Source: Verrucomicrobiia bacterium (lineage in GTDB: Bacteria > Verrucomicrobiota > Verrucomicrobiia > Limisphaerales > UBA11358). Taken from it: a stretch of 64,000 bases of DNA. Of the stretch, positions 3,160-64,000 are shown one piece after another. The DNA is taken from the NCBI GenBank assembly GCA_049692125.1, contig JBAVOO010000038.1, positions 5,588 through 69,587 on the forward strand, given 5' to 3'. A program made the position numbers and the translations under genes. Each line of letters begins with the position of its first letter. Position 1 is the first letter of the stretch. The notes under the pieces were generated by a model. It did no database searches and was not told the DNA's origin. It saw only the letters and a program-made list of their open reading frames with translations.

Positions 3160-3303
3160 CCCCGTAGCGCAGGTTTCCAAACCTGCTGTATCGCCGATTT
3201 CCAAATCGGCAGCGCACCGAAACTCCTGCGCCCATTGAGCCTTTCCAAGTTCGCGGATTTGGAAATCCGCGACACAGCCGACTTGGAAGTCGGCGCTACG
3301 GGG
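3160..3303. repeat. Family A multi-hairpin palindromic repeat (type copy)
   Basis: Bounded by CCCCGTAGCGC ... GCGCTACGGGG. It contains four short stem-loops: gcaggtttccaaacctgc, gccgatttccaaatcggc, cgcggatttggaaatccgcg, gccgacttggaagtcggc. Related copies lie at 16086, 16708, 21494 and 36277. Confidence 0.8.
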
Positions 3304-3386: not shown

Positions 3387-6300
3387 ATGGCCGTCGCTTT
3401 ACAATTCATCCTGAACGGCCGGATCGTCAGGGTTGAAAATTGTTCTCCGAACACGACGCTGCTTGAATTCCTGCGTCGCGCCGGCCTGACCGGCGCGAAG
3501 GAAGGTTGCGCCGAGGGCGACTGCGGCGCGTGCGCGGTCGTCATGGTTGACCGTGACGTGCAAGGGCGGCCTTGTTATCGCGCCATCAACAGTTGCCTCG
3601 TGCCGCTCTGCCTGATGGCGGGGCGTGAAATCGTCAGCGTCGAAGGCGTCGCGTCCGGTCAAGGCCTTCATCCCGTGCAGCGGAAAATGGTCGAGTGCCA
3701 CGGGTCCCAATGCGGCTACTGCACGCCGGGGTTCATCATGTCGCTCTTTGAGGGTTATTACCGCGACGACATCCATCAGCACGACGAACTGGACGATCAA
3801 CTCAGCGGCAATCTATGCCGCTGCACCGGCTACCGCCCGATTCGCGACGCAGCCATTGAAGCGTTTTCACTTCGTAGGAGTCGAGGTAACGAGACTCAAA
3901 CTAAAAGCAAAAATGAATTGGAGACTCCTTACGTCGTCTCCTACGGTCAGGATATTTTCGCCAAACGGCTGAAAAAGGCCGGCACCGGGCCGGACGGTGT
4001 CGAGTACGAATTCGGAAATGAGAAATTCTTCCGGCCAACCTCGCTGGTCCGGCTTCTGATGTTGCTTCAGCAGTTTCCCGACGGGCAACTCATCGCCGGG
4101 GCGACGGAACTGGGCCTCGACATCACCAAGCGTTACAAGAAATTCCGGACGCTGATTTCCGTCGAAGCCGTTTCCGAGCTGAATGGCATCCAATCCACTG
4201 AAACCGAATGGCAGATCGGTGCGGCGGCGACGCTGACGCAGATCGAGGAAAAAATGGCGGCAGAATTTCCCGCGCTCGGCGACATGTTGCGCGTGTTCGG
4301 TTCGCGGCTGATTCGCAATCGCGCCACGATGGGCGGCAACCTCGTCACCGCTTCGCCCATTGGCGACAGCGCGCCCGTGCTGCTGGCGTTGGACTCGAAA
4401 GTGGTGCTTGTAGGACAGGCTTCCAGCCTGTCTCCATCTAAAACGGAAAAGTTAGAGACAGGCGCGACGCCTGTCCTCCAGGAGCGCATTTTGCCGATTG
4501 AGCAATTCTTCGTCGCCTACCGCAAAACCGCGCTTCAGCCCGGCGAGATCCTGAAAACCATCATTGTGCCGCGCGGGGTGCCAAAACCGGGACTGGCGCG
4601 TAAATGTTCGTGGTTCAAAGCGTCCAAACGGCGCGAGATGGACATCAGCACGGTGGCCGCCTGCTTCACGGTGGATCTGGACGAACAGAACGTCGTGCGT
4701 TATGCGCGTCTGGCCTACGGGGGCGTGGCGGCGATGCCCGCCCGCGCGAAGAAAACCGAGTCGGCACTGTCCGGCAAAGTCTGGAGCAACGAAACCATTG
4801 CCGGCGTGCTGCCCATTTTGCGGACGGAGTTCAACCCCATCTCCGATGTTCGCGGCTCGGCGGAGTATCGCCGCGGATTGATCACCGGCTTGCTGGAAAA
4901 GTTTTTTCACGATTCGGAGGGGCGAGTTACACGAGTCCTTGACTCAAATGGAATTGATTTGGGGCTCGCAGAGTTCGCCCCTCCGAAACAGTCAAACCGC
5001 CCTCCGCCGCACGAAAGCGGCCACAAGCACGCCACCGGCGAGGCAATCTACACGGATGATTTCGGCGCCCGAAAACAAATGCTCGAAGTCTGGCCGGTGT
5101 GTGCGCCTCATGCTCGCGCGAAAATCTTGAAGCGCGACGCTTCGGCGGCAAAGCAGATGCCGGGAGTCGCCGCGGTTTTGCTGGCGGAAGATGTGCCGGG
5201 GTTGAACGATGTCGGCGCCGTGCGGCGGGACGAAATCCTGCTGGCGGACAAGGAGGTTTTTTATCACGGCCAGATCATTGCGCTGGTTGTCGGCGAAACT
5301 CAGGAAGCCTGCCGCTCCGCCGCGGATAAAATAATTGTCGAATACGAACCGCTGCCGCCCCTTCTGAAAATCGAGGAGGCCATCGCGCACAATAGCTTTC
5401 ACACCGAGCCGAATTTCATCCGGCGCGGCGACGTTCAGGGGGCGTTAAAAAAATCTCCGCAGGTTCTTGATGGGGAATTTTACATGGCCGGGCAGGAACA
5501 TTTTTATCTGGAAATGCAGGCGGCCTGCGCGGAGCCGGGCGAGGATGGCTCGATGTTCGTGATGTCCTCGACGCAGCATCCGTCCGAGGTGCAGCACATC
5601 GTCGCACACCTGTTGCACGTGCCGGTGAATCACGTCGTCGTGCAAAGCCCCCGCATGGGCGGCGGCTTTGGCGGCAAGGAAACGCAGGCTGCCACCTTTG
5701 CCGCGCTGGCGGCGCTGGCGGCGGCGAAAACCAAACACCCCGTGCGCGTGCGCGTGAACCGCGATCTCGACATGATGATTACCGGCAAGCGTCATCCGTT
5801 TCTGGCGAAGTTCAAAGTGGGCTACAATTCCGACGGCGATTTGCTCGCGGCAAAAATCGAATTGATCTCCAACGGCGGCTGGTCCCTCGATTTGTCCGTG
5901 CCGGTGACGGACCGCGCGGTGTTTCATCTGGACAATGCGTATTTTATCCCGGCGGTTGAATTTTCCGGGCAGGTCGCCAAAACCAATCTGGCGTCGAACA
6001 CGGCATTTCGCGGGTTCGGCGGACCGCAAGGCATGCTGGTCATCGAGGAAATTATTGACCGCATTGCGCGGCGGCTCGGCAAAGCGCCGGAGCAAATCCG
6101 CGAGCGGAATCTGTATCGCGGCAATGGCGAAACGAACACGACGCATTACGGACAGGAAATCGAGGACAACCGCATCCAGCGCGTCTGGCACGAATTGAAG
6201 GACAGCACCGGGTTTGAAAAACGTCGGGGGGAAATTGCGAAATGGAATGCGGACCATCCGCATCGCAAGCGCGGACTGGCCATGACGCCGGTGAAATTCG

Positions 6301-7313
6301 GGATTTCGTTTACGATGACGCATTTGAACCAGGCGGGCGCGCTGGTTTTGATTTATCAGGACGGCACGGTGCAGGTGAACCACGGCGCGACGGAAATGGG
6401 CCAGGGGGTTCACACGAACATTGCCATGATTGCGGCCCGGGAGCTTGGAATTTCGTTGGACAACGTTCGCGTCATGCCGACGAGCACGGACAAGGTGCCG
6501 AACACTTCGGCGACAGCCGCGTCGTGCGGCACGGACCTGAACGGGATGGCGGTGAAAAATGCGTGCGAAGTTTTGCGGGCCCGGCTGGCGCCGGTGGCGG
6601 CCAAACTGCTATCCAACGCCAGCGGACGTGAAGTCACGCCGGACAAGGTCGTGTTTGCGGACAATTTTGTTTCCGCCGCTGATGTTGTTTCCGGTGCCGG
6701 ATCGGGAGAGATAAAACTCGCGTTCAAGGAAGTTGTGGTCCCCGCACACATGCAGCGCATCAGCCTGTCTTCCACTGGGTTTTATCGCACGCCGGAAATC
6801 CATTACGACCGCGCAAAGGGCAAGGGCAGACCGTTCCATTATTTCGCGGTCGGCGCGGCAGTCACAGAAGTCGAGGTGGACGGGTTCACGGGCATGACCA
6901 AAATTTTGCGCACGGATATTTTGCACGACGCGGGCGACTCGATTAATCCGGGTATCAATCTTGGCCAGATTGAAGGCGGCTTCGTGCAGGGCGCGGGCTG
7001 GCTGACGTGCGAGGAGTTGGTTTGGAACGACCAGGGCGTTTTGCTGACACACTCGCCGGACACCTACAAAATTCCCGCCGTTGGCGACCGGCCGCTGGAG
7101 TTCAACGTGCAATTCCTCAAGAACGCGACCCAACCCAACACGATTCACGGCAGCAAAGCCGTCGGTGAGCCGCCGTTGATGCTGGCGATTTCCGTGCGCG
7201 AGGCGATCCGCGATGCAGTGGCAGCGTTTGGCTCCGGCCAAGGCGAAATTGCGCTCGCCGTGCCGGCCACCGGTGAGGCGATTTGGATGGCGATTCAGAA
7301 ACAACGAAAATGA
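3387..7313 (+). CDS. xdh: Xanthine dehydrogenase, single polypeptide (2Fe-2S + FAD + molybdopterin domains; XdhA-XdhB fusion)
   Basis: 1308 aa. N-terminal CAEGDCGACAV and CGYCTPGFIMS...CRCTGY FeS motifs; FAD domain (ATMGGNLVTASPIGD); Mo domain (QSPRMGGGFGGKET, GATEMGQG, KAVGEPP). The ORF is continuous. Confidence 0.92.
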   Translation: MAVALQFILNGRIVRVENCSPNTTLLEFLRRAGLTGAKEGCAEGDCGACAVVMVDRDVQGRPCYRAINSCLVPLCLMAGREIVSVEGVASGQGLHPVQRKMVECHGSQCGYCTPGFIMSLFEGYYRDDIHQHDELDDQLSGNLCRCTGYRPIRDAAIEAFSLRRSRGNETQTKSKNELETPYVVSYGQDIFAKRLKKAGTGPDGVEYEFGNEKFFRPTSLVRLLMLLQQFPDGQLIAGATELGLDITKRYKKFRTLISVEAVSELNGIQSTETEWQIGAAATLTQIEEKMAAEFPALGDMLRVFGSRLIRNRATMGGNLVTASPIGDSAPVLLALDSKVVLVGQASSLSPSKTEKLETGATPVLQERILPIEQFFVAYRKTALQPGEILKTIIVPRGVPKPGLARKCSWFKASKRREMDISTVAACFTVDLDEQNVVRYARLAYGGVAAMPARAKKTESALSGKVWSNETIAGVLPILRTEFNPISDVRGSAEYRRGLITGLLEKFFHDSEGRVTRVLDSNGIDLGLAEFAPPKQSNRPPPHESGHKHATGEAIYTDDFGARKQMLEVWPVCAPHARAKILKRDASAAKQMPGVAAVLLAEDVPGLNDVGAVRRDEILLADKEVFYHGQIIALVVGETQEACRSAADKIIVEYEPLPPLLKIEEAIAHNSFHTEPNFIRRGDVQGALKKSPQVLDGEFYMAGQEHFYLEMQAACAEPGEDGSMFVMSSTQHPSEVQHIVAHLLHVPVNHVVVQSPRMGGGFGGKETQAATFAALAALAAAKTKHPVRVRVNRDLDMMITGKRHPFLAKFKVGYNSDGDLLAAKIELISNGGWSLDLSVPVTDRAVFHLDNAYFIPAVEFSGQVAKTNLASNTAFRGFGGPQGMLVIEEIIDRIARRLGKAPEQIRERNLYRGNGETNTTHYGQEIEDNRIQRVWHELKDSTGFEKRRGEIAKWNADHPHRKRGLAMTPVKFGISFTMTHLNQAGALVLIYQDGTVQVNHGATEMGQGVHTNIAMIAARELGISLDNVRVMPTSTDKVPNTSATAASCGTDLNGMAVKNACEVLRARLAPVAAKLLSNASGREVTPDKVVFADNFVSAADVVSGAGSGEIKLAFKEVVVPAHMQRISLSSTGFYRTPEIHYDRAKGKGRPFHYFAVGAAVTEVEVDGFTGMTKILRTDILHDAGDSINPGINLGQIEGGFVQGAGWLTCEELVWNDQGVLLTHSPDTYKIPAVGDRPLEFNVQFLKNATQPNTIHGSKAVGEPPLMLAISVREAIRDAVAAFGSGQGEIALAVPATGEAIWMAIQKQRK
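3874..3944. repeat. Family C palindromic repeat inside xdh (FeS/FAD interdomain region)
   Basis: Termini gtaggagtcgaggtaacgagactc ... gagactccttacgtcgtctcctac. A related copy in opposite orientation lies at 36346-36417. Encodes ...RRSRGNETQTKSKNELETPYVVSY.... Confidence 0.7.
4410..4479. repeat. Family A-like two-hairpin repeat inside the xdh FAD domain
   Basis: Sequence gtaggacaggcttccagcctgtc ... gacaggcgcgacgcctgtcctcc. The caggctttccagcctg-type hairpin resembles the one at 16091. Encodes ...VGQASSLSPSKTEKLETGATPVLQ.... Confidence 0.6.
4916..4984. repeat. Family B repeat (GGAGGGGCGAG ... TTCGCCCCTCC) forming the XdhA/XdhB linker
   Basis: 69 bp. The inverted termini and the internal ggctcgc(a/g)(g/a)g box are shared with the copies at 32665-32770 and 34544-34621. 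Confidence 0.7.
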
Positions 7314-14909: not shown

Positions 14910-16076
14910 TTACTTGATCAACTTGCCCAGCGCGGCCAGCGGCGATTTTACCCGCGCCAGGAAAATCATCGCGGCAATCACGAATGGCTTGAAGCTCGCC
15001 TCGCGGTAGGTCGCGAGGCGGTGTTTCTCAAACACAGTCGCCGACACCTCGCCCTGCGCGCAGCTCACGCCCGAGATGTCCGCGGGCAGACAGTGCAGGT
15101 AGAGCGCCTTGCCGCCTTTGGTGAGTTTCATTTTCTTTTCGTCGCATTCCCAGTTCTTGAAGCGCGCATTGTTCGCGAGACATTCCTTCTCCAGCGCCTT
15201 CAGCCCGTCGAGGTAGCCCTGTTTTAACAAGGGTGTGCGTCTCTGCATCACCGCGTAAGGCGCCCACGATTTCGGATACACTACGTCCGCGTCGCGGAAC
15301 GCGTCCTCCATGTTCGACACCACTTCAAACTTGCCGCCGCACTTCGCCGCGTTTTTTTTCGCCAGTTCAACCACGTCCGGAATCAAACCGTAACCCTCCG
15401 GATGCGCCAGCGTCACGTTCATGCCGAACCGGGTCATCAAACCGATGATGCCCTGCGGCACGGACAGCGGTTTGCCGTAACTCGGCGAATACGCCCAGCT
15501 CATGGCAATCTTTTTGCCACGTAGATTTTCCAGCGAGCCAAAATGATTCTTCAGGTGGACCAGGTCCGCCATCGCCTGCGTCGGATGGTCAATGTCGCAT
15601 TGCAGGTTGATCACGTTGGGCCGCTGATGCAGCACGCCTTTCTCGAATCCCTCCTGCACCGCGGCGGAAAACTCGCGCATGTAACGGTTGCCCTCGCCGA
15701 GATACATGTCGTCGCGGATGCCGATGACCTCCGCCATGAAGGAAATCATGTTCGCCGTCTCGCGCACCGTCTCGCCATGGGCGATCTGGGATTTTTCCTC
15801 GTCCAGGTCCGCCAGGCCCAGGCCCAGCGAATTCGCCGCTGAAGCGAAGCTGAATCGCGTGCGCGTCGAGTTGTCGCGGAAGATGGAAATCGCCAGCCCG
15901 GTGTCAAAGACGCGGAAGGACTTGCCGGCCCGATGCATTTCGGAAAACAGCTCGGCCAGCGCTACCACGGCGCGGAGTTCGTCCTCGGACTTTTCCCGCG
16001 TCAGCAGGAAATCCTTGCCGTAGCTGTTGAATTTGAGCTTTTGCAGTTCAGCCAGTTGTTGTTTCCAGATCTTCAT
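14910..16076 (-). CDS. ygeW: YgeW-type (knotted) carbamoyltransferase
   Basis: Near-collinear with my recollection of E. coli YgeW: FRDNSTRTRFSF, KSQIAHGETVRETANMISF, NLQCDIDHPTQAMADL, WAYSPSYGKPLSVPQGIIGLMTRFGM, HCLPADISGVSC. The start is set at ATG 16076 (MKIWKQQ...). The ORF-track extension to 16154 runs into repeat A2. Confidence 0.92.
   Translation of the reverse strand: MKIWKQQLAELQKLKFNSYGKDFLLTREKSEDELRAVVALAELFSEMHRAGKSFRVFDTGLAISIFRDNSTRTRFSFASAANSLGLGLADLDEEKSQIAHGETVRETANMISFMAEVIGIRDDMYLGEGNRYMREFSAAVQEGFEKGVLHQRPNVINLQCDIDHPTQAMADLVHLKNHFGSLENLRGKKIAMSWAYSPSYGKPLSVPQGIIGLMTRFGMNVTLAHPEGYGLIPDVVELAKKNAAKCGGKFEVVSNMEDAFRDADVVYPKSWAPYAVMQRRTPLLKQGYLDGLKALEKECLANNARFKNWECDEKKMKLTKGGKALYLHCLPADISGVSCAQGEVSATVFEKHRLATYREASFKPFVIAAMIFLARVKSPLAALGKLIK
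14923..14960. repeat. Direct repeat copy 2 (inside the 3' end of ygeW)
   Basis: See 14393-14428. On the minus strand this copy encodes the native YgeW C-terminus ...ARVKSPLAALGKLIK. Confidence 0.8.
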
Positions 16077-16085
16077 GTATTTGAT

Positions 16086-16194
16086 GTGGCGCAGGCTTTC
16101 CAGCCTGCGGGTTCTGGGGACTTTCCAATCCCCAGTCTCTGGAACACGGGACAAGAATGTCCCGTGAACCCGCAGACAGGAATGTCTGCGCTAC
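16086..16194. repeat. Family A multi-hairpin repeat
   Basis: GTGGCGC ... GCGCTAC. Hairpins: gcaggctttccagcctgc, ggggactttccaatcccc, cgggacaagaatgtcccg, gcagacaggaatgtctgc. Confidence 0.8.
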
Positions 16195-16217: not shown

Positions 16218-17711
16218 TCATGGATTAGAGGACGCTTTTGCAGACACTTTGGTTCTTTCAGGTTTTGCCGCCGCGGCAATGGCATCAACGATCTGCTGGT
16301 AGCCAGTGCAGCGGCAGAGGTTTCCTGAGATTGCCGTTCGGATTTGTGTTTCGGTCGGATGTGGATTCAGATCCAGCAGTGCTTTTGCGCTCATCAGCAT
16401 TCCCGGGGTGCAGAATCCGCAGTGGACGGCATCGCAGTCCATGAAGGACTCCTGCAAAAGGTGGAGCTTGCCGCGCTGCATGAGTCCCTCCACGGTTAGA
16501 ACGTGTCGCCCGGCGATTTGTGGCGCGAGAACCAGACAGGAGTTCACCGGCTCGCCGTCGAGCAGCACCGTGCACGCCCCACACTCGCCAATCTCGCAAC
16601 CGCTTTTCGTGCCGGTAAAACCGAGCCGGTCACGCAGCAGATCGAGCAACGTCCAATGGGCGGGAATCGCAAGTGTATGGGAGCGCCCGTTGATGGTCGT
16701 GGTAATCGTAGCGCAGACTTCCAAGTCTGCCGTATTGCTGGTTTCTAAACCCGCGAGCCGTTCGACGTGCTCTGGCGTTGCCGATTTGGAAATCGGCGGT
16801 ACAGCAGACCTGGAAGTCTGCGGTACAGCAGGTTTGTCCCGCAAGGCGGGATGCGCTACTGCGGCTTGTTCCAACGCCCGGCGCACCAGCACGGCAATGA
16901 CGGGTTCCTTGTACTCCGACGACCAGCGCCTTCCGGCCTCTTTTATCATTTGCCCGGCAACTTTCTTTCCGGCGGCGGCGAACAGCTTCACCGCCGGCTT
17001 CTCGCCGACGAGCATCGCTTCGGCGTCCGTCACTCGCTTCCACACGGGGAAGACCGAGCCGGGAACGATGCGCGCATCACCGATTCTTCCATCGTCATTC
17101 ATTTGCAGAATGGCGGCAACACTCAGCCGGGAAGTCGAGAGTGCATTGCGGCGGCCGAGCTTGATGAATGCGCTTCGGGCGTTTGCCGGCAGCTTGGAGA
17201 AGCGGACAGCCGTCAGCAGTTCATCCGGTTTCGCCCTGGTTTGATAGGGTTTGAGGAACAGTTCCGCCAGATCCAGCTCGCGGCGCCCGGTCTTCGATTG
17301 CAGGGTCACGATTGCGCCCAGAGCGATCAGGGGCGGGACGGTGTCAGCGCACGTGGCGGCGTTCATGATGTTTCCGCCGATGGTTCCGCGATTTCTGATT
17401 TGCGGTGAACCGATGGTTGAAGCGGCTGAAACGAGGCACGGAGCAAACGTTCGCAATACGTTCGAACGCAGCAACTGGCTGTGCGTCGTAAGCGGCCGGA
17501 TGAGAATGCCGCCGTCGGATTCGATGATGCCGCCCAGTTCGTTCGCGCGGGAGGTGTCGAGAAGAACCTTGGGCGGCTTCGTTGATGGGTGCCGCAACTT
17601 GATCAATAAATCAGTTCCCCCGGCAAGGACAGAAGCATCGGGACCATGCTCGGAAAGGAGGCTGCACGCCTCAGCGATGGTCGCAACCGGGATGTAATCA
17701 AAAGGTTTCAA
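16218..17711 (-). CDS. Fused FAD-binding (CoxM/YgfM-like) and 2Fe-2S (CoxS-like) subunit of a molybdenum hydroxylase
   Basis: The N-terminal part (LKPFDYIPVATIAEA...LAGGTDLL...GTIGGNI) is a FAD subunit. The C-terminal part (INGRSHTL...GTKSGCEIGECGACTV...CGFCTPGM...CRCTGY) is a FeS subunit. The likely TTG start at 17711 overlaps the upstream TGA. The ORF-track start at 17837 lies inside the upstream gene. Confidence 0.85.
   Translation of the reverse strand: MKPFDYIPVATIAEACSLLSEHGPDASVLAGGTDLLIKLRHPSTKPPKVLLDTSRANELGGIIESDGGILIRPLTTHSQLLRSNVLRTFAPCLVSAASTIGSPQIRNRGTIGGNIMNAATCADTVPPLIALGAIVTLQSKTGRRELDLAELFLKPYQTRAKPDELLTAVRFSKLPANARSAFIKLGRRNALSTSRLSVAAILQMNDDGRIGDARIVPGSVFPVWKRVTDAEAMLVGEKPAVKLFAAAGKKVAGQMIKEAGRRWSSEYKEPVIAVLVRRALEQAAVAHPALRDKPAVPQTSRSAVPPISKSATPEHVERLAGLETSNTADLEVCATITTTINGRSHTLAIPAHWTLLDLLRDRLGFTGTKSGCEIGECGACTVLLDGEPVNSCLVLAPQIAGRHVLTVEGLMQRGKLHLLQESFMDCDAVHCGFCTPGMLMSAKALLDLNPHPTETQIRTAISGNLCRCTGYQQIVDAIAAAAKPERTKVSAKASSNP
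16708..16859. repeat. Family A multi-hairpin repeat forming the FAD/FeS linker
   Basis: GTAGCGC ... GCGCTAC. Hairpins: gcagacttccaagtctgc, gccgatttggaaatcggc, gcagacctggaagtctgc, cccgcaaggcggg. Encodes ...HPALRDKPAVPQTSRSAVPPISKSATPEHVERLAGLETSNTADLEVCAT.... Confidence 0.8.
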
Positions 17712-20068
17712 TGCGCACCTCGTCCCAGCTTGCACGAGTCGCCCGCCATCGGGTCCTTCTGGAGCGAGCCGCGCGCGCCTTTCCGCGACAGCTTGTGCCC
17801 CAGCAGCACGCGCTCCAGCGTGGCCGGGATCTCGCAAATGCGTTTGCCGGTCGCGTTGTAGATCGCGTTCACGATGGCCGGCGCAGCGATCTCATTGGTT
17901 GGCTCACCCACCGATTTCGCGCCGAATGGCCCCGCGGCGTCTTCGTTTTCGACGATAATGCCCCGGATCTTCGGAACGTCCAGCGCGGTCGGGATCAGGT
18001 ATTCGTCGAAGTTGAGCTGCTTGGGAACGGCGCCCTCAAAATCGAACTCCTCCAGCAACCCATAGCCGAGTCCCATCGCCACGCCGCCATAAAACTGCCC
18101 GAGCACCGTATTCCGGTTGATCGCTTTCCCAACGTCGTGGCAGGAAACAAAATTGACAACGTTGACCTTGCCGGTTTCGGTGTCCACTTCGACCTCCGCC
18201 ACATTCGCGCCATAGACAAAAGTGAAGTAGGCCTCACCAGTTCCTGCTTTTTCGTGCCAGGAGGCGGGCGGTGCCTTATGCCAGCCAAAGCCATACATCG
18301 GCTTGCCACGGCGGAAGCACTCGGCGGCGACCTCGGCAAACGACGCCATCCGTTTCCCGTTGCTTTTCCTGACGAGGTAATTGTCGGCAAATTCGCACTC
18401 TTGCTGATCAATTTTCAGCATGTTGGATGCAACTCCGAGCAGGGTCGCCCGGACGATTTCCGCCGCTTTCCTGGCCGCCGACCCGCCCATGATCGTTCCC
18501 CGCGAAGCCACGGTCGGTCCCGAGTCCGGTACCCGGCTGGTGTTCGTGTTCAGGAAGCGAATGCGATCCATGGAAACGCCGAGCACTTCGGCAGCGATTT
18601 GCGACATCTGAGTTTGTGCACCCTGTCCCATATCCGTAATGCCGGAGGAAACAATCACGCTGCCGTCAGTCTGCACCGAAACAATCGTCCCCGCGGCGTC
18701 CACACCTTCCGCGCCCAGCGACACGCCGCGGTAGCTGCACGCCAGTCCGATGCCGCGCTTCCGGGGAGCGTCCGCCGCCCGGCGATATTTCCTCCAATTC
18801 GGTTGAAAGTTCGCTGCCGCCGCGGCTTTCGTCAGCACTTCGCTTAAACTCACGTTGTGCGTGAGTCGTTGTCCGGTGGCTGTCACCGCCCCCGACTTGA
18901 AACCGTTCTGTAATCGAATCGCCAGCGGATCTTTTCCGACTTTCTCAGCCAGCTCGTCCATCATCGATTCGATGGCAAAATTCACCTGCGGTGAACCGAA
19001 GCCGCGCATGGCGCCGGTGTAGTTGTTGTTCGTGTAAACGGCGTACACATCGGTTTTCACGTTCTCGCAGCAGTATGGCCCCGTCGCCTGCACCACCGAC
19101 CGCCACGTGACGAACGGACTCATGGAAGCATACGCGCCGCCATCCGCGATGCACCGGACTTCCATGGCCGTAATCGAGCCGTCCTTTTTGGCACCCCACT
19201 TGTAGTAGAGAACATAGGGATGCCGTTTGTACGACTCGAGCATGGACTCCTCGCGGGAGTTGACCATCTTCACCGGTTGGCCGGTCGCGCGGGCCAACAG
19301 CGCGGCGCGGCAACACATCGCCGTCATGACTTCATCTTTTCCGCCGAACGAGCCCCCCAAGGTCGCCTGAATAATCTGAACCTGGTTGAGGTCGAGCTTG
19401 AGCGCGGCCGCAACGGAGCGCCGGCTGGAAAAAAGATTTTGAACGCTGCCGGTGACGATCACTCCGCCGTGCTCATCGGGTTCGGCCAGAACGGCCTCCG
19501 GCTCGAGGTACGAGTGCTCGACAAACTGCGTTTTGAACTTCCGCTCGATGAAGAAATCGGCCCGGGCGAATCCTTTCCCGATGTCTCCTTTGCGCACCTT
19601 GTGATGGACGAACGCGTTTTTGGCGCCGTGGATTCCCGGCGCATTCGCCTTCAGCGCTGCTTCGGGGTCGGAGACGATGGGAAGCGGCTGGTAGTCAACG
19701 TCAATGAGCGAGAGCGCTTGCTCGGCGATTTCTTTCGTGCGCGCCGCGACCAGGGCCACGCCGTCTCCGAGATAGCGGACTTTGTCCACCGCCAGGATTG
19801 CCTGGTTCTTCACCACAATTCCGAAGACCTTTTCGCCGGGAATATCGCGCGCCGTGAGAACCGCTTCGACCCCCGCCAGCCGTCCGGCTTTCGAGGTGTC
19901 GATCCGCAGGATACGCGCATGAGGATGCTTCGAGCGGAGCACTTTCCCGTAGAGTTGGTGGCCGACGGTGTAATCGGCAGCGAACTTTGCCCGTCCGGTC
20001 ACCTTTCCGATGGCATCGACCCGGCGCTCTCCCTTGCCGATGATCCTGGTTTTGCCCCGGCCCTTCAT
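17708..20068 (-). CDS. Molybdopterin-binding subunit of an XDH-family hydroxylase (XdhD/CoxL-like)
   Basis: 786 aa. RVDAIGKVTGRAKFAADY, GGSFGGKDE, TDMGQGAQT and KSVGEPT are hallmark blocks. Confidence 0.92.
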   Translation of the reverse strand: MKGRGKTRIIGKGERRVDAIGKVTGRAKFAADYTVGHQLYGKVLRSKHPHARILRIDTSKAGRLAGVEAVLTARDIPGEKVFGIVVKNQAILAVDKVRYLGDGVALVAARTKEIAEQALSLIDVDYQPLPIVSDPEAALKANAPGIHGAKNAFVHHKVRKGDIGKGFARADFFIERKFKTQFVEHSYLEPEAVLAEPDEHGGVIVTGSVQNLFSSRRSVAAALKLDLNQVQIIQATLGGSFGGKDEVMTAMCCRAALLARATGQPVKMVNSREESMLESYKRHPYVLYYKWGAKKDGSITAMEVRCIADGGAYASMSPFVTWRSVVQATGPYCCENVKTDVYAVYTNNNYTGAMRGFGSPQVNFAIESMMDELAEKVGKDPLAIRLQNGFKSGAVTATGQRLTHNVSLSEVLTKAAAAANFQPNWRKYRRAADAPRKRGIGLACSYRGVSLGAEGVDAAGTIVSVQTDGSVIVSSGITDMGQGAQTQMSQIAAEVLGVSMDRIRFLNTNTSRVPDSGPTVASRGTIMGGSAARKAAEIVRATLLGVASNMLKIDQQECEFADNYLVRKSNGKRMASFAEVAAECFRRGKPMYGFGWHKAPPASWHEKAGTGEAYFTFVYGANVAEVEVDTETGKVNVVNFVSCHDVGKAINRNTVLGQFYGGVAMGLGYGLLEEFDFEGAVPKQLNFDEYLIPTALDVPKIRGIIVENEDAAGPFGAKSVGEPTNEIAAPAIVNAIYNATGKRICEIPATLERVLLGHKLSRKGARGSLQKDPMAGDSCKLGRGAH

Positions 20069-20096
20069 GTCGCCGTCCTTGAGCCAGCTTTTTTGT

Positions 20097-20243
20097 CTAG
20101 TTTCGGCATAAGCACGCTCCGCCGGGCTGGTCGCCCTCGAGCAATTGGTTGTTGGAGACTACCACTTCACCGCGAACAAGAACATGTTTAAAATCCAGCG
20201 TGCGGCTCTGGTCGACCTTTCCGTTGCGAATCAGCACCTTCAT
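20097..20243 (-). pseudogene. 48-codon stub resembling the N-terminus of a cyclic amidohydrolase (hydantoinase/dihydropyrimidinase, HyuA-like)
   Basis: Hand translation gives MKVLIRNGKVDQSRTLDFKHVLVRGEVVVSNNQLLEGDQPGGACLCRN*. Compare E. coli HyuA MRVLIKNGTVVNADGQAKQDLLIESGIV (from memory). ATGA overlap with the stop of the thrC-like gene. Below the ORF-track length cutoff. Confidence 0.45.
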
Positions 20244-21466: not shown

Positions 21467-21493
21467 ATTCGCAGGACAAACGTCGCGCCTGTC

Positions 21494-21611
21494 GTAGCGC
21501 AGACTTCCAAGTCTGCTGTATCGCGGGTTTCCCAACCCGCAGCCCGCACAACATCGAACGCCCCGCCGATTTGGAAATCGGCGATACAGCAGGTTGGGAA
21601 ACCTGCGCTAC
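21494..21611. repeat. Family A multi-hairpin repeat
   Basis: GTAGCGC ... GCGCTAC. Hairpins: gcagacttccaagtctgc, cgggtttcccaacccg, gccgatttggaaatcggc, gcaggttgggaaacctgc. Confidence 0.8.
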
Positions 21612-35612: not shown

Positions 35613-35657
35613 CGAGTGACACGTGACAGGATTTCGTGTCACCTGTCACCTGTCACA
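35602..35657. repeat. Long imperfect hairpin built from GTGAC(A/C) heptad-like repeats, spanning the xdhC stop to the mocA start
   Basis: Left arm gtgacaagtgacgagtgacacg and right arm gtgtcacctgtcacctgtcac, with about 18/21 pairing. The mocA ATG (35657) follows immediately. Confidence 0.6.
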
Positions 35658-36280
35658 TGCCACCGATTAAGGATCAAACGGTATTGGGCGTGGTCATCCT
35701 TGGCGCGGGCGCGTCGTCGCGGATGGGCCGGCCCAAGCTGCTGCTGCCCTGGCGCGACACCACCATCATCGGCCATTTGCTCAAACAATGGCGCGACCTC
35801 GGCGCGGCGCAAATTGGCATCGTCCTGCGTCCACCAGACGCGCCGCTGGCTGCCGAACTGGACCGGCTGGGTTTTCCGCACGCTGACCGCATTGAAAACC
35901 CGCAACCGGAGCGCGGCATGTTCAGCTCGATTCTCTGTGCAGCAAGCTGGCCCGGCTGGAAGGATGAAATCGCCACCTGGGCCATCGTACTGGGCGACCA
36001 GCCGCATTTGCGTATGGAAATGCTGCGCCAACTGCTGGAATTTCATGGCGCGAACGCCGACGCGGTCTGCCAGCTCGAATTTGACGGGCACGCGCGGCAT
36101 CCGGTTTTGCTGCCGCGCCGGGCATTCAAGGCGCTGAAAGTGTCCCAGGCCGAAACGTTGAAGGATTTTTTGAAACGAACTTCCGTCCGCTGCCTCCGCT
36201 GTTCCGTGGATGAACCCGGTCTGGCGCTGGATCTGGATACGCCGGAGGATTACCAACGGGCAAAGGGTGCCGGCTTGTAG
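35657..36280 (+). CDS. mocA: Molybdenum cofactor cytidylyltransferase (MobA-like NTP transferase, MocA family)
   Basis: VVILGAGASSRMGRPKLLLPW, VLGDQP, GHPVLL-like block and LDLDTPEDY fit MocA/YgfJ. The TAG stop lies inside repeat A5. Confidence 0.85.
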   Translation: MPPIKDQTVLGVVILGAGASSRMGRPKLLLPWRDTTIIGHLLKQWRDLGAAQIGIVLRPPDAPLAAELDRLGFPHADRIENPQPERGMFSSILCAASWPGWKDEIATWAIVLGDQPHLRMEMLRQLLEFHGANADAVCQLEFDGHARHPVLLPRRAFKALKVSQAETLKDFLKRTSVRCLRCSVDEPGLALDLDTPEDYQRAKGAGL

Positions 36281-36329
36281 CGCAGGTTTCCAAACCTGCT
36301 GTATTGCCGACTTACAAGTCGGCAAGGCG
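36277..36329. repeat. Family A repeat, half copy
   Basis: Sequence gtagcgcaggtttccaaacctgctgtattgccgacttacaagtcggc. No matching GCGCTAC end is seen. Confidence 0.75.
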
Positions 36330-63129: not shown

Positions 63130-64000
63130 ATGAAATTAAAAAAACTGCCGCTTGCCGCATTTGCTTTTTGCGGTTTCTTCAATGCCGTTAATCCCGTCTT
63201 CGCTCAAAACTGGATTGGCACAAGTGCGCCCGGTAAAGGTTGGGTTTCCGTCGCCTGTTCTGCTGATGGAACGAAATTGGTGGCGGTGCCTGACGGTGAC
63301 TTTATTTACACCTCGACTAATTCGGGAGCAACGTGGACGGCGGCGATCACTGCGCCAAACGCCAATTGGCAAGCGGTAGCCTCATCCACGAACGGAAGTA
63401 AATTAGTGGCGGTGGTCTATTCCGGTTTGATTTACACTTCAACCAATTCGGGAGCAACGTGGACGGCGGCCACTGCGCCAAGCACAAATTGGCAAGCAGT
63501 AGCCTCTTCGGCAGACGGAAATAATTTAGTAGCTGCGGTGAGTGGCGGATTGATTTACGTCTCGAACGATTCAGGAACAACTTGGGCAGCAACCAGTGCG
63601 ACCAGCACGAATTGGGCCTCTATCGCCTCGTCAGCGGATGGAACAATGATAATGGCAGCGGTGCATGACGGTTTGATTTACAACTCGACTGATTCAGGGG
63701 CAACTTGGGCAGCAACCAGTGCGCCGAGCGACGGTTGGACTTCCATCGCCTCTTCTGCTGATGGAACCAAACTGATAGCAGCAGCATGGCAATCTGGATA
63801 TGGCGACAATCTGGTTTACACTTCAGCCGATTCGGGAACAACTTGGACAGCAACGAGTCTCGGCAGTGGTGTATGGTCTTCTGTTGCTTCTTCAGCGGAT
63901 GGAACAAAATTGGTGGCAGTATTAGGTGGACTTTATAATTTCGGCGGTCCGATCTTTGCCTCGACAAATTCGGGAGCAACTTGGGTTTTGACCGGTCCGA
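63130..64000 (+). CDS. Secreted BNR/Asp-box repeat beta-propeller protein (partial; runs off the right edge)
   Basis: Hand translation shows a signal peptide MKLKKLPLAAFAFCGFFNAVNPVFAQ. It is followed by at least 7 units of about 40 aa of the type W.S.A.SADG.KL.A....G.IY.S.(N/D)SG.TW (Asp-box SxDxGxTW). Confidence 0.75.
   Translation, partial: MKLKKLPLAAFAFCGFFNAVNPVFAQNWIGTSAPGKGWVSVACSADGTKLVAVPDGDFIYTSTNSGATWTAAITAPNANWQAVASSTNGSKLVAVVYSGLIYTSTNSGATWTAATAPSTNWQAVASSADGNNLVAAVSGGLIYVSNDSGTTWAATSATSTNWASIASSADGTMIMAAVHDGLIYNSTDSGATWAATSAPSDGWTSIASSADGTKLIAAAWQSGYGDNLVYTSADSGTTWTATSLGSGVWSSVASSADGTKLVAVLGGLYNFGGPIFASTNSGATWVLTGP

Follow-up and report, generated by a model that had tools for sequence, protein, structure and literature searches.

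When a dispersed repeat fills the junction between two protein modules that are separate subunits in other organisms, did the repeat make the junction or did it settle in one that already existed? This question is raised by a 64,000-nucleotide (nt) stretch of DNA from a Verrucomicrobiia bacterium (contig JBAVOO010000038.1, positions 5,588 to 69,587), hereafter called the window, in which a single open reading frame (ORF) at 16218-17711 joins a flavin adenine dinucleotide (FAD) subunit and a 2Fe-2S (FeS) subunit of a molybdenum (Mo) hydroxylase, and in which nearly the whole connection between the two is encoded by a palindromic repeat that we call family A. According to the original prediction, which was made from the sequence alone, the repeat fuses the subunits. 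On the evidence presented here, we consider it likely, with a probability of about 0.8, that the family-A repeat is a tolerated passenger in the disordered linker of an already fused protein and not the cause of the fusion.

Relatives of the gene were used to assess how old the fusion is. All of the 120 best homologues (64-100% identical, 466-542 amino acids long except for two cut-off fragments, and from Verrucomicrobiota where named) carry all four domains, two per module, in one chain. At 12 of the 14 verrucomicrobial reference loci, counted as one genome per species, the gene is a single uninterrupted ORF; one of the remaining two is cut by a contig end past the linker and the other carries a disrupting deletion. 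Of 66 loci from other phyla, 61 are split into two genes, the FeS gene overlapping or abutting the FAD gene: the FAD gene ends with ...RRALEQC(xx)*, the FeS gene begins with M..I.TTING, and 0-10 nt lie between them. The five fused loci outside the clade, two from Bacteroidota and three from Anaerolineae, have linkers of 36-51 amino acids and represent independent fusions. For the strongly folded linker of one of them (L042, Anaerolineales; z = -4.0), no dispersed copy was found in the 12 kb of that locus.

The most informative relative is the protein P0007, encoded at locus L001, which in each of the two modules shares 95-97% identity with the window clade. At L001, as at locus L008, the modules are connected by a 40-residue, repeat-free linker (CAPGSTASS...ASKSCA) that has no similarity to the repeat and an ordinary fold (z ~0), and the coding DNA flanking the linker aligns nearly perfectly. 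P0003, which carries a family-A linker, and P0007 are 96.9% identical outside the linker. Since all best homologues are fused and the close fused relative P0007 is free of the repeat, the fusion is older than the family-A element and ancestral to the verrucomicrobial clade. The comparison of orthologous junctions, which had been proposed as a check of the original prediction, thus shows the fusion both with and without the repeat and contradicts the idea that this repeat brought the subunits together. The FAD-FeS fusion is an old and widespread verrucomicrobial architecture, not private to the source genome, and such XdhBC fusions are already present in public databases under generic names. 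In the lineage of the window, the family-A repeat replaced an older linker of ~40 amino acids. A simple insertion into the old linker was rejected, as it would give ~90 amino acids, as opposed to the 53 observed, and the old sequence is gone. The gene in one verrucomicrobial metagenome-assembled genome (L051:7400-7560) is without residues ~271-335 and changes frame there, being either a pseudogene or an assembly error.

The repeat itself is a complete GTAGCGC...GCGCTAC element that lies in frame and supplies 51 codons (285-335) of the FAD-2Fe-2S connection, as had been predicted. Its unit is 24 nt (8 codons) long and consists of GTAnC (GTA[G/T/C]C in the consensus) followed by an 18-nt hairpin, GCNGNNTTCCAANNCNGC, with a 7-bp stem, i.e. 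the combination of GTAG tag and palindrome known from repetitive extragenic palindromes (REPs) and from REPINs. Three left units, a spacer and two inverted right units make up the linker copy, in which the first left unit is disrupted by a 16-nt replacement, itself a small hairpin; the four hairpins described initially were thus recovered as four canonical 23/24-nt units, to which this extra hairpin has to be added. Two inverted arms around a variable spacer, which is the REPIN form, are seen in the linker as well as in the copies at 3164 and 21494, and in the minimum-free-energy fold the two arms base-pair with each other. The linker RNA folds with -83 kcal/mol compared to -52 +/- 7 elsewhere in the gene (z = -4.4). 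A search with the unit pattern gave 11 matches in the window versus 0.01 expected by chance, and a search with the bare hairpin gave 19 versus 0.39. A set of 45 family-A units, collected from the window and from six further loci, shows covariation at three positions of the stem (AT/CG/GC, GC/AT and TA/CG).

Five family-A sites are present in the window (Table 1), four of them intergenic, which is the dispersed and mainly intergenic distribution of REPs and REPINs, and further copies were found at L005, at L107 and on two contigs of a viral collection. The intergenic copies announced at 3160, 16086 and 21494 were all located (3164-3299, 16086-16194 and 21494-21611), and the half copy at 36277-36323 had been missed. 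In the latter, the TAG (36278-36280) of the GTAG tag is the stop codon of the mocA-like ORF 35636-36280 (+), of the molybdenum cofactor cytidylyltransferase type, and this copy shows that such elements land directly on gene ends. The mechanical ORF starts of the ygeW-like gene (TTG 16154) and of the PALP gene (TTG 21535) reach into repeat copies (16077-16154 and 21467-21535), and the lengths of their orthologues (388 and 408 amino acids) place the true starts at 16076 and 21466, respectively. A miniature inverted-repeat transposable element was considered in view of the inverted termini, but no target-site duplication was found in the flanks of 3164-3299 or 21494-21611. No Rfam family matches the element. 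It is palindromic and non-autonomous, belongs to the GTAG-tagged REP/REPIN kind and would be mobilised by a REP-associated tyrosine transposase (RAYT).

The linker is not occupied by family A alone. Across 117 orthologues, the two modules are well conserved while the linker is hypervariable: about 12 linkers are of family A (VAQVSKPAV...GLETCAT), about 40 or more are of a second family, B (KVGRAVPSAP...GALGTARPT), in which GTAGGGCGCGCTGTCCCCAGCGCGCC occurs in inverted pairs, about 25 contain a third repeat, hairpin C (KVGQCVPPA...GQAGRTAL), and the remainder show no repeat. The linker DNA of L007, L013, L024, L216 and L217 forms near-perfect stems of ~22-30 bp and, in L007, L013 and L024, has a fold of far higher stability than elsewhere in the gene (z = -3.6 to -8.4). 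Family B has proved to be a genuinely dispersed REPIN: a 17-mer of its arm was detected in at least 120 metagenome stretches, just one of them with this gene, and 30 stretches contain inverted pairs whose modal length of 101 nt is that of the L024 copy. It was also found in frame in at least ten unrelated, Pfam-verified proteins (L090, L190, L199, L088, L108, L097, L193, L093, L172 and L176), including IleRS, RlmN, ETF-QO, an FtsX permease and an E2 acyltransferase, the latter in its lipoyl-E3BD linker. Also among the ten are three MqnE/CofH-like radical-SAM orthologues, in which one site is occupied by different family-B variants and is apparently a second hot spot.

Relatives whose modules are 88-97% identical bear unrelated linkers (98 pairs of B and C, 11 pairs of A and no repeat, and others), so that the evolution of the enzyme is far slower than the turnover or recombination of its linker alleles; swaps of alleles were seen between relatives that are 93-97% identical outside the linker. 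In L206 and L207, which look like intermediates, the tail of the old linker persists behind the family-A repeat, and close relatives differ by insertions or deletions of 8-residue units in the linker. One and the same interdomain linker has thus been recurrently occupied and replaced by several unrelated repeat types. That the 52-residue linkers of types B and C might be inversions of one shared segment was rejected, as they have no similarity on either strand. The 101-nt B copies of L024 and L217 lie at the same site with spacers that, judged by eye against other copies of the family, appear to run in opposite orientation, which suggests either an inversion between the arms or independent insertions. 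The 85-residue linker of P0104 arose from a 38-residue tandem duplication comprising the last residues of the FAD module (EQCAS) and a C-type hairpin.

Hairpin C was located in the orthologous linkers at L013:10859-10934, L216:10859-10934 and L025:3588-3663. No copy outside this linker was found in the other loci examined (~2 Mb), and a 22-mer of it had no match among viral contigs, a collection that is insensitive, as even the dispersed family B gives only two matches there. A 15-mer gave 67 matches, by estimate the level of chance.

With regard to the protein, Pfam assigns FAD_binding_5 to residues 3-171 (E-value 1.8e-41) and CO_deh_flav_C to residues 184-283 (1.1e-11) of the 497-residue chain, the make-up of the ~285-residue FAD subunits of the XdhB/CoxM type. 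Fer2 (339-391) and Fer2_2 (406-478) follow as in 2Fe-2S subunits of the XdhC/CoxS type, and the eight cluster cysteines (C372, C377, C380, C392, C431, C434, C466 and C468) are invariant across the 117 orthologues. FAD subunits in the PDB (CoxM, CutM, NdhF and similar) align with residues 3-284 and small FeS subunits with residues 335-488; the residues in between had no match among solved structures in the PDB sequence search. In a Foldseek search, the FAD module reached target-normalised template modelling scores (TM-scores) of 0.84-0.90 against FAD chains of the three-subunit type. The query-normalised TM-score of the full 497-residue model did not exceed 0.53; the model matched single-module chains only, and the order FAD-then-FeS was found in no solved chain. 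The proposal of an independent domain arrangement is upheld in this respect, albeit for a whole verrucomicrobial clade and not for a single genome. In the AlphaFold2 model, calculated from the 117-sequence alignment with a mean predicted local distance difference test score (pLDDT) of 79, both modules are confidently modelled. Residues 293-330 have pLDDT values of ~33-43 and no secondary structure, and the linker is accordingly predicted to be disordered. The C-terminal tails of the orthologues vary as much as the linker (P0023 and P0048; residues 483-497 in the window protein), and some of them, by eye, resemble translated repeats that stretch the ORF beyond its ancestral stop.

The best NCBIfam models are XdhB for the first half of the chain, XdhC for the second and XdhA/PucD for the Mo subunit, all of them below the equivalog cut-offs. 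The Mo subunit scores 563 bits with the XdhA/PucD models versus 333 bits with the XdhD model. An XdhD-YgfM urate reductase was rejected based on TIGR03313 (333 bits, cut-off 1102) and TIGR03312 (31 bits, cut-off 242), and the FAD subunit, which the original prediction had called YgfM-like, is nearest to the XdhABC/PucCDE type. The TTG start of the fused ORF overlaps the TGA stop of the Mo-subunit ORF in the sequence TTGA. Judged by these sequence comparisons, the enzyme would be a two-chain hydroxylase composed of XdhA and XdhBC.

The open frame across the linker is genuine. The exact 497-residue protein is present on at least 22 contigs, and the 1494-nt gene has 0 differences across eight loci from at least seven samples, which span genome, metagenome and single-sequencing-run assemblies. 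As the gene is identical in these eight independent assemblies, a sequencing or assembly error that hides a stop codon, named at the outset as a finding that would overturn the prediction, is excluded. The linker reading frame of the element contains no stop codon; frame 2 would hit the TAG of GTAG.

How could a palindromic repeat persist within this gene? We propose that the element sits in the part of the gene that tolerates almost any sequence, i.e. a long disordered linker, between FAD and 2Fe-2S modules which were fused already in the common ancestor of the verrucomicrobial clade. The stretch of older linker that it replaced extends, almost exactly, from where the FAD module ends (...ALEQ) to where the FeS module starts (ITTTING). 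Three properties may explain its persistence: the element is free of stop codons in the frame used; gain or loss of units would preserve the frame, because 24 nt correspond to 8 codons; and the FeS module would have no start signal of its own, so that only in-frame, stop-free variants would survive. The peptide encoded by the repeat would then be a neutral, flexible tether.

Several observations weigh against this proposal. Among the ~35 ORFs of the 64-kb window scanned with Pfam, neither a RAYT nor any other transposase was found. All five linker copies of family A are read in one and the same frame and have lengths that equal 2 mod 3, as opposed to 0 or 1 mod 3 for the intergenic copies; either a common origin or selection acting on the peptide could account for this. 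Linker lengths cluster at 39-41 and 50-53 amino acids, whatever the type of linker, and plain neutral insertion predicts neither such recurrent length classes nor replacement instead of addition. Across all independent fusions, the linker has a minimum length of 33-36 amino acids. Finally, the 25-nt arms of hairpin C are 92-100% identical where the genes are only 69-75% identical in DNA, and the 26-nt spacer between them is of constant length and unalignable. The intact arms hint at maintenance beyond neutrality, and re-seeding or gene conversion by a dispersed family, or selection in place, are possible reasons for their conservation.

Another explanation is that an older GTAG repeat, similar to B or C, hit the stop/start junction in the ancestor of the clade and thereby created the fusion, one step yielding ~35-40 open codons and later repeats re-occupying the site. 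This scenario accounts for the extra ~100-120 nt, the size of a repeat, by which fused and split forms differ at the exact junction, for the shortest B and A linkers, in which all but 2-5 residues are repeat, and for the fact that more than half of the 117 linkers still look repeat-derived; the mocA-like stop codon described above provides a case in the source genome where the GTAG of a copy coincides with a gene end. However, in a rough neighbour-joining tree the repeat-free linkers, which are of the Opitutaceae and P0007 types, branch toward the base, and they fold in an ordinary manner, some outgroup FAD genes have C-terminal tails of 7-22 amino acids, so that plain loss of the stop codon could suffice, and the linkers of the independent fusions in Bacteroidota and Anaerolineae are not demonstrably repeats. 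We therefore regard it as unlikely that an older repeat was the origin of the fusion. Somewhat more doubtful still is an extended version, in which the site, after a GTAG repeat had created the XdhB-XdhC fusion, stayed a preferred site for landing or gene conversion, with A, B and C replacing one another, the arms staying intact and the spacer drifting. If this version were true, REPINs would be a source of ready-made long linkers and of gene fusions, and the locus would be a natural system for studying REPIN insertion and maintenance.

The hairpins might alternatively be kept for a function of their own in mRNA or DNA, such as a ribosome pause between the modules or stabilisation or processing of the mRNA. 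In six verrucomicrobial loci, the stability of the linker fold greatly exceeds that of the remaining gene (z -3.2 to -8.4), the hairpin-C arms are conserved around a scrambled spacer, with a complementary change at the termini in L216 (GTAG>GTGG and CTAC>CCAC), and the family-A stems covary. These features notwithstanding, we judge such a function to be rather improbable: the orthologues at L001, L008, L009, L011 and L012 lack hairpins, many C-type linkers have changes that, as read from the peptides, break the pairing, close relatives swap A, B, C or nothing, and the covariation of the stems is a trait of the entire dispersed family and not of this site.

That family A itself created the fusion in this lineage, by insertion between separate coxM-like and coxS-like genes, seems very improbable. 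The element does cover the whole junction and abolishes any stop or start, and the outgroup genes are separate and abut exactly at its present site. All verrucomicrobial orthologues, however, are fused regardless of the linker, including the sisters P0007/L001 and L008 (~90-97% identical in the modules) with their repeat-free linker, and family-A linkers occur in several separate clades, with the old tail behind the repeat in L206 and L207. We give hardly any credence to a restart of translation that would yield a free FeS subunit and hence two polypeptides: in-frame TTG codons, contrary to the initial claim that no ATG, GTG or TTG is available at the FeS boundary, are found as codons 280, 290 and 330 (codon 330 lies in 'ADLEV') and restart would occur at TTG330 (or 290), but none of these TTGs has a preceding stop or a Shine-Dalgarno-like sequence upstream, they are not conserved in orthologous linkers and are not credible starts, and more than 100 orthologues hold the frame open across very different linkers, which argues that selection maintains read-through. 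The tolerated passenger in an already fused protein thus remains our preferred reading.

Table 1 Features of the fused gene, its partner gene and the family-A repeat copies in the 64-kb window.
Feature	Position	Strand	Remarks
Fused XdhB-like FAD + XdhC-like 2Fe-2S gene	16218..17711	-	single ORF, 497 amino acids, TTG start
FAD module, residues 1-283	16863..17711	-	FAD_binding_5 + CO_deh_flav_C
Linker, codons 284-335	16707..16862	-	residues 293-330 with pLDDT <50 and without secondary structure
2Fe-2S module, residues 336-497 + stop codon	16218..16706	-	Fer2 + Fer2_2
Mo-subunit gene, molybdopterin-binding, 786 amino acids, closest to XdhA/PucD	17708..20068	-	coupled translationally to the fused gene
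Family-A REPIN-like palindromic repeat, 152 nt, GTAGCGC...GCGCTAC	16708..16859	-	in frame, V285 to first two bases of T335
Family-A copy, 136 nt, intergenic between two other Mo-hydroxylase genes	3164..3299	.	
Divergent family-A copy, 109 nt, intergenic, flanked by the fused-gene stop and the ygeW-like start (16076)	16086..16194	.	
Family-A copy, 118 nt, intergenic between the ygeY-like and PALP genes	21494..21611	.	
Half copy of family A (two units), at the end of the mocA-like gene	36277..36323	+	

Neighbours of the gene pair are ygeW, ygeY and ssnA, each of which scores above its NCBIfam cut-off, and further genes nearby encode a ygfK-like flavoprotein, a PALP enzyme, an adenine deaminase and a xanthine/uracil permease. 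It is the neighbourhood known for the reductive urate pathway, of which E. coli and Clostridioides are the described cases (PMC12507026). The enzyme, which the NCBIfam scores place with the XdhABC and not the XdhD-YgfM type, lies inside a reductive purine/urate cluster of the ygeW/ygeY/ssnA/ygfK type. Within this cluster, a remnant of a hyuA-like amidohydrolase gene was noticed at 20069-20239 (-): an in-frame stub of 48 codons made of ~10 first and 37 last codons (92% identical), which corresponds to an internal deletion of ~1.2 kb. At L002 and L004, a hyuA-like gene of 450 amino acids lies between the PALP gene and the Mo-subunit gene. Genes of defence type (McrBC, RhuM, TIR, Fic and peptidase U49) are located between the fused gene and ygeW at L002:11497-15548 and just downstream of ygeW at L207:12936-18936; in the window, the fused gene and ygeW are adjacent. 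The window contains two more Mo hydroxylases with a family-A repeat between them, namely a single-chain enzyme of 1308 amino acids with the eukaryote-like order FeS-FAD-Mo (3387-7313, +) and a two-subunit FeS + Mo enzyme without FAD (348-824 and 821-2995, +). An array of 123-nt tandem repeats (63-87% identical) at 63215-63996 probably represents coding repeats of a large surface protein running past the end of the window.

These results suggest that selfish palindromic repeats survive inside genes in a disordered tether where only frame and length matter, and that a repeat at a domain junction is no evidence that the repeat made the junction. One linker has received three or more hairpin-forming inserts that are unrelated to one another, of which at least two come from dispersed repeat families, and it thus offers a natural experiment on REPIN insertion and replacement, on the constraints on linker length in Mo hydroxylases and on whether repeats of this kind can make gene fusions. 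For annotation, the names of XdhBC fusions in public records are misleading, ORF calls next to REP copies are given inflated N-termini, and the GTAG of a REP can provide a stop codon.

Among known Mo hydroxylases, E. coli XdhABC and Bacillus PucCDE share with this enzyme the gene order Mo, FAD, FeS and give the best NCBIfam matches, but XdhB and XdhC are separate chains there, whereas here they form one chain whose scores are below the equivalog cut-offs. Rhodobacter capsulatus XdhA and the eukaryotic xanthine oxidoreductases and aldehyde oxidases likewise combine FAD and 2Fe-2S modules in one chain with a long, partly disordered linker; in R. capsulatus XdhA (1jro_A) and eukaryotic xanthine oxidoreductase, however, FeS precedes FAD, the reverse of the order found here. 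A fusion of the XdhA small-subunit type was rejected for this reason and based on TIGR02963 (274 bits versus a cut-off of 467, in two separate stretches). In E. coli, XdhD bears the FeS domains on the Mo subunit and YgfM consists of the FAD part only. In the enzyme described here, FeS is joined to FAD, and only the gene neighbourhood (ygeW, ygeY, ssnA, the ygfK-like gene and the PALP enzyme) is shared with XdhD-YgfM.

With regard to the repeat, the palindromic elements of Rickettsia, in the account of Ogata et al. (2000) given in PMC10969869, are ~100-150 bp long, lie in frame in unrelated genes and are seemingly compatible with fold and function. The in-frame palindromic insertion is alike, a likeness in behaviour only, as the hosts belong to different phyla; as described in that account, the Rickettsia elements are additions within single proteins, whereas here a linker between two former subunits was replaced wholesale. 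The closest parallel is provided by GTAG-tagged REPs and REPINs (Bertels & Rainey 2011, PMC3116915; Di Nocera et al. 2013, PMC3733652), with which family A has in common a short hairpin adjoining the GTAG tag, complementary changes of the stem between sub-families, an inverted arrangement of doublets around spacers that vary, and a mostly intergenic location near gene 3' ends with occasional in-frame copies. It differs from them in that each of its arms, rather than being a single hairpin, consists of two or three 24-nt units in tandem, in that no cognate RAYT was seen among the scanned ORFs of the window, and in that the element makes up a whole interdomain linker in which sister lineages hold other repeat types. 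The 51 encoded codons are at the upper end of what is reported for REPs, where most dimers encode 20-30 amino acids and clusters 43-82. Intragenic GTAG REPs are most numerous in another verrucomicrobium, Opitutus terrae, and it has been suggested that they are neutral in flexible linkers or loops (PMC3733652). The in-frame occurrence of GTAG REPs inside genes is thus a phenomenon already on record, to which this locus adds the recurrent replacement of one linker by several repeat types.

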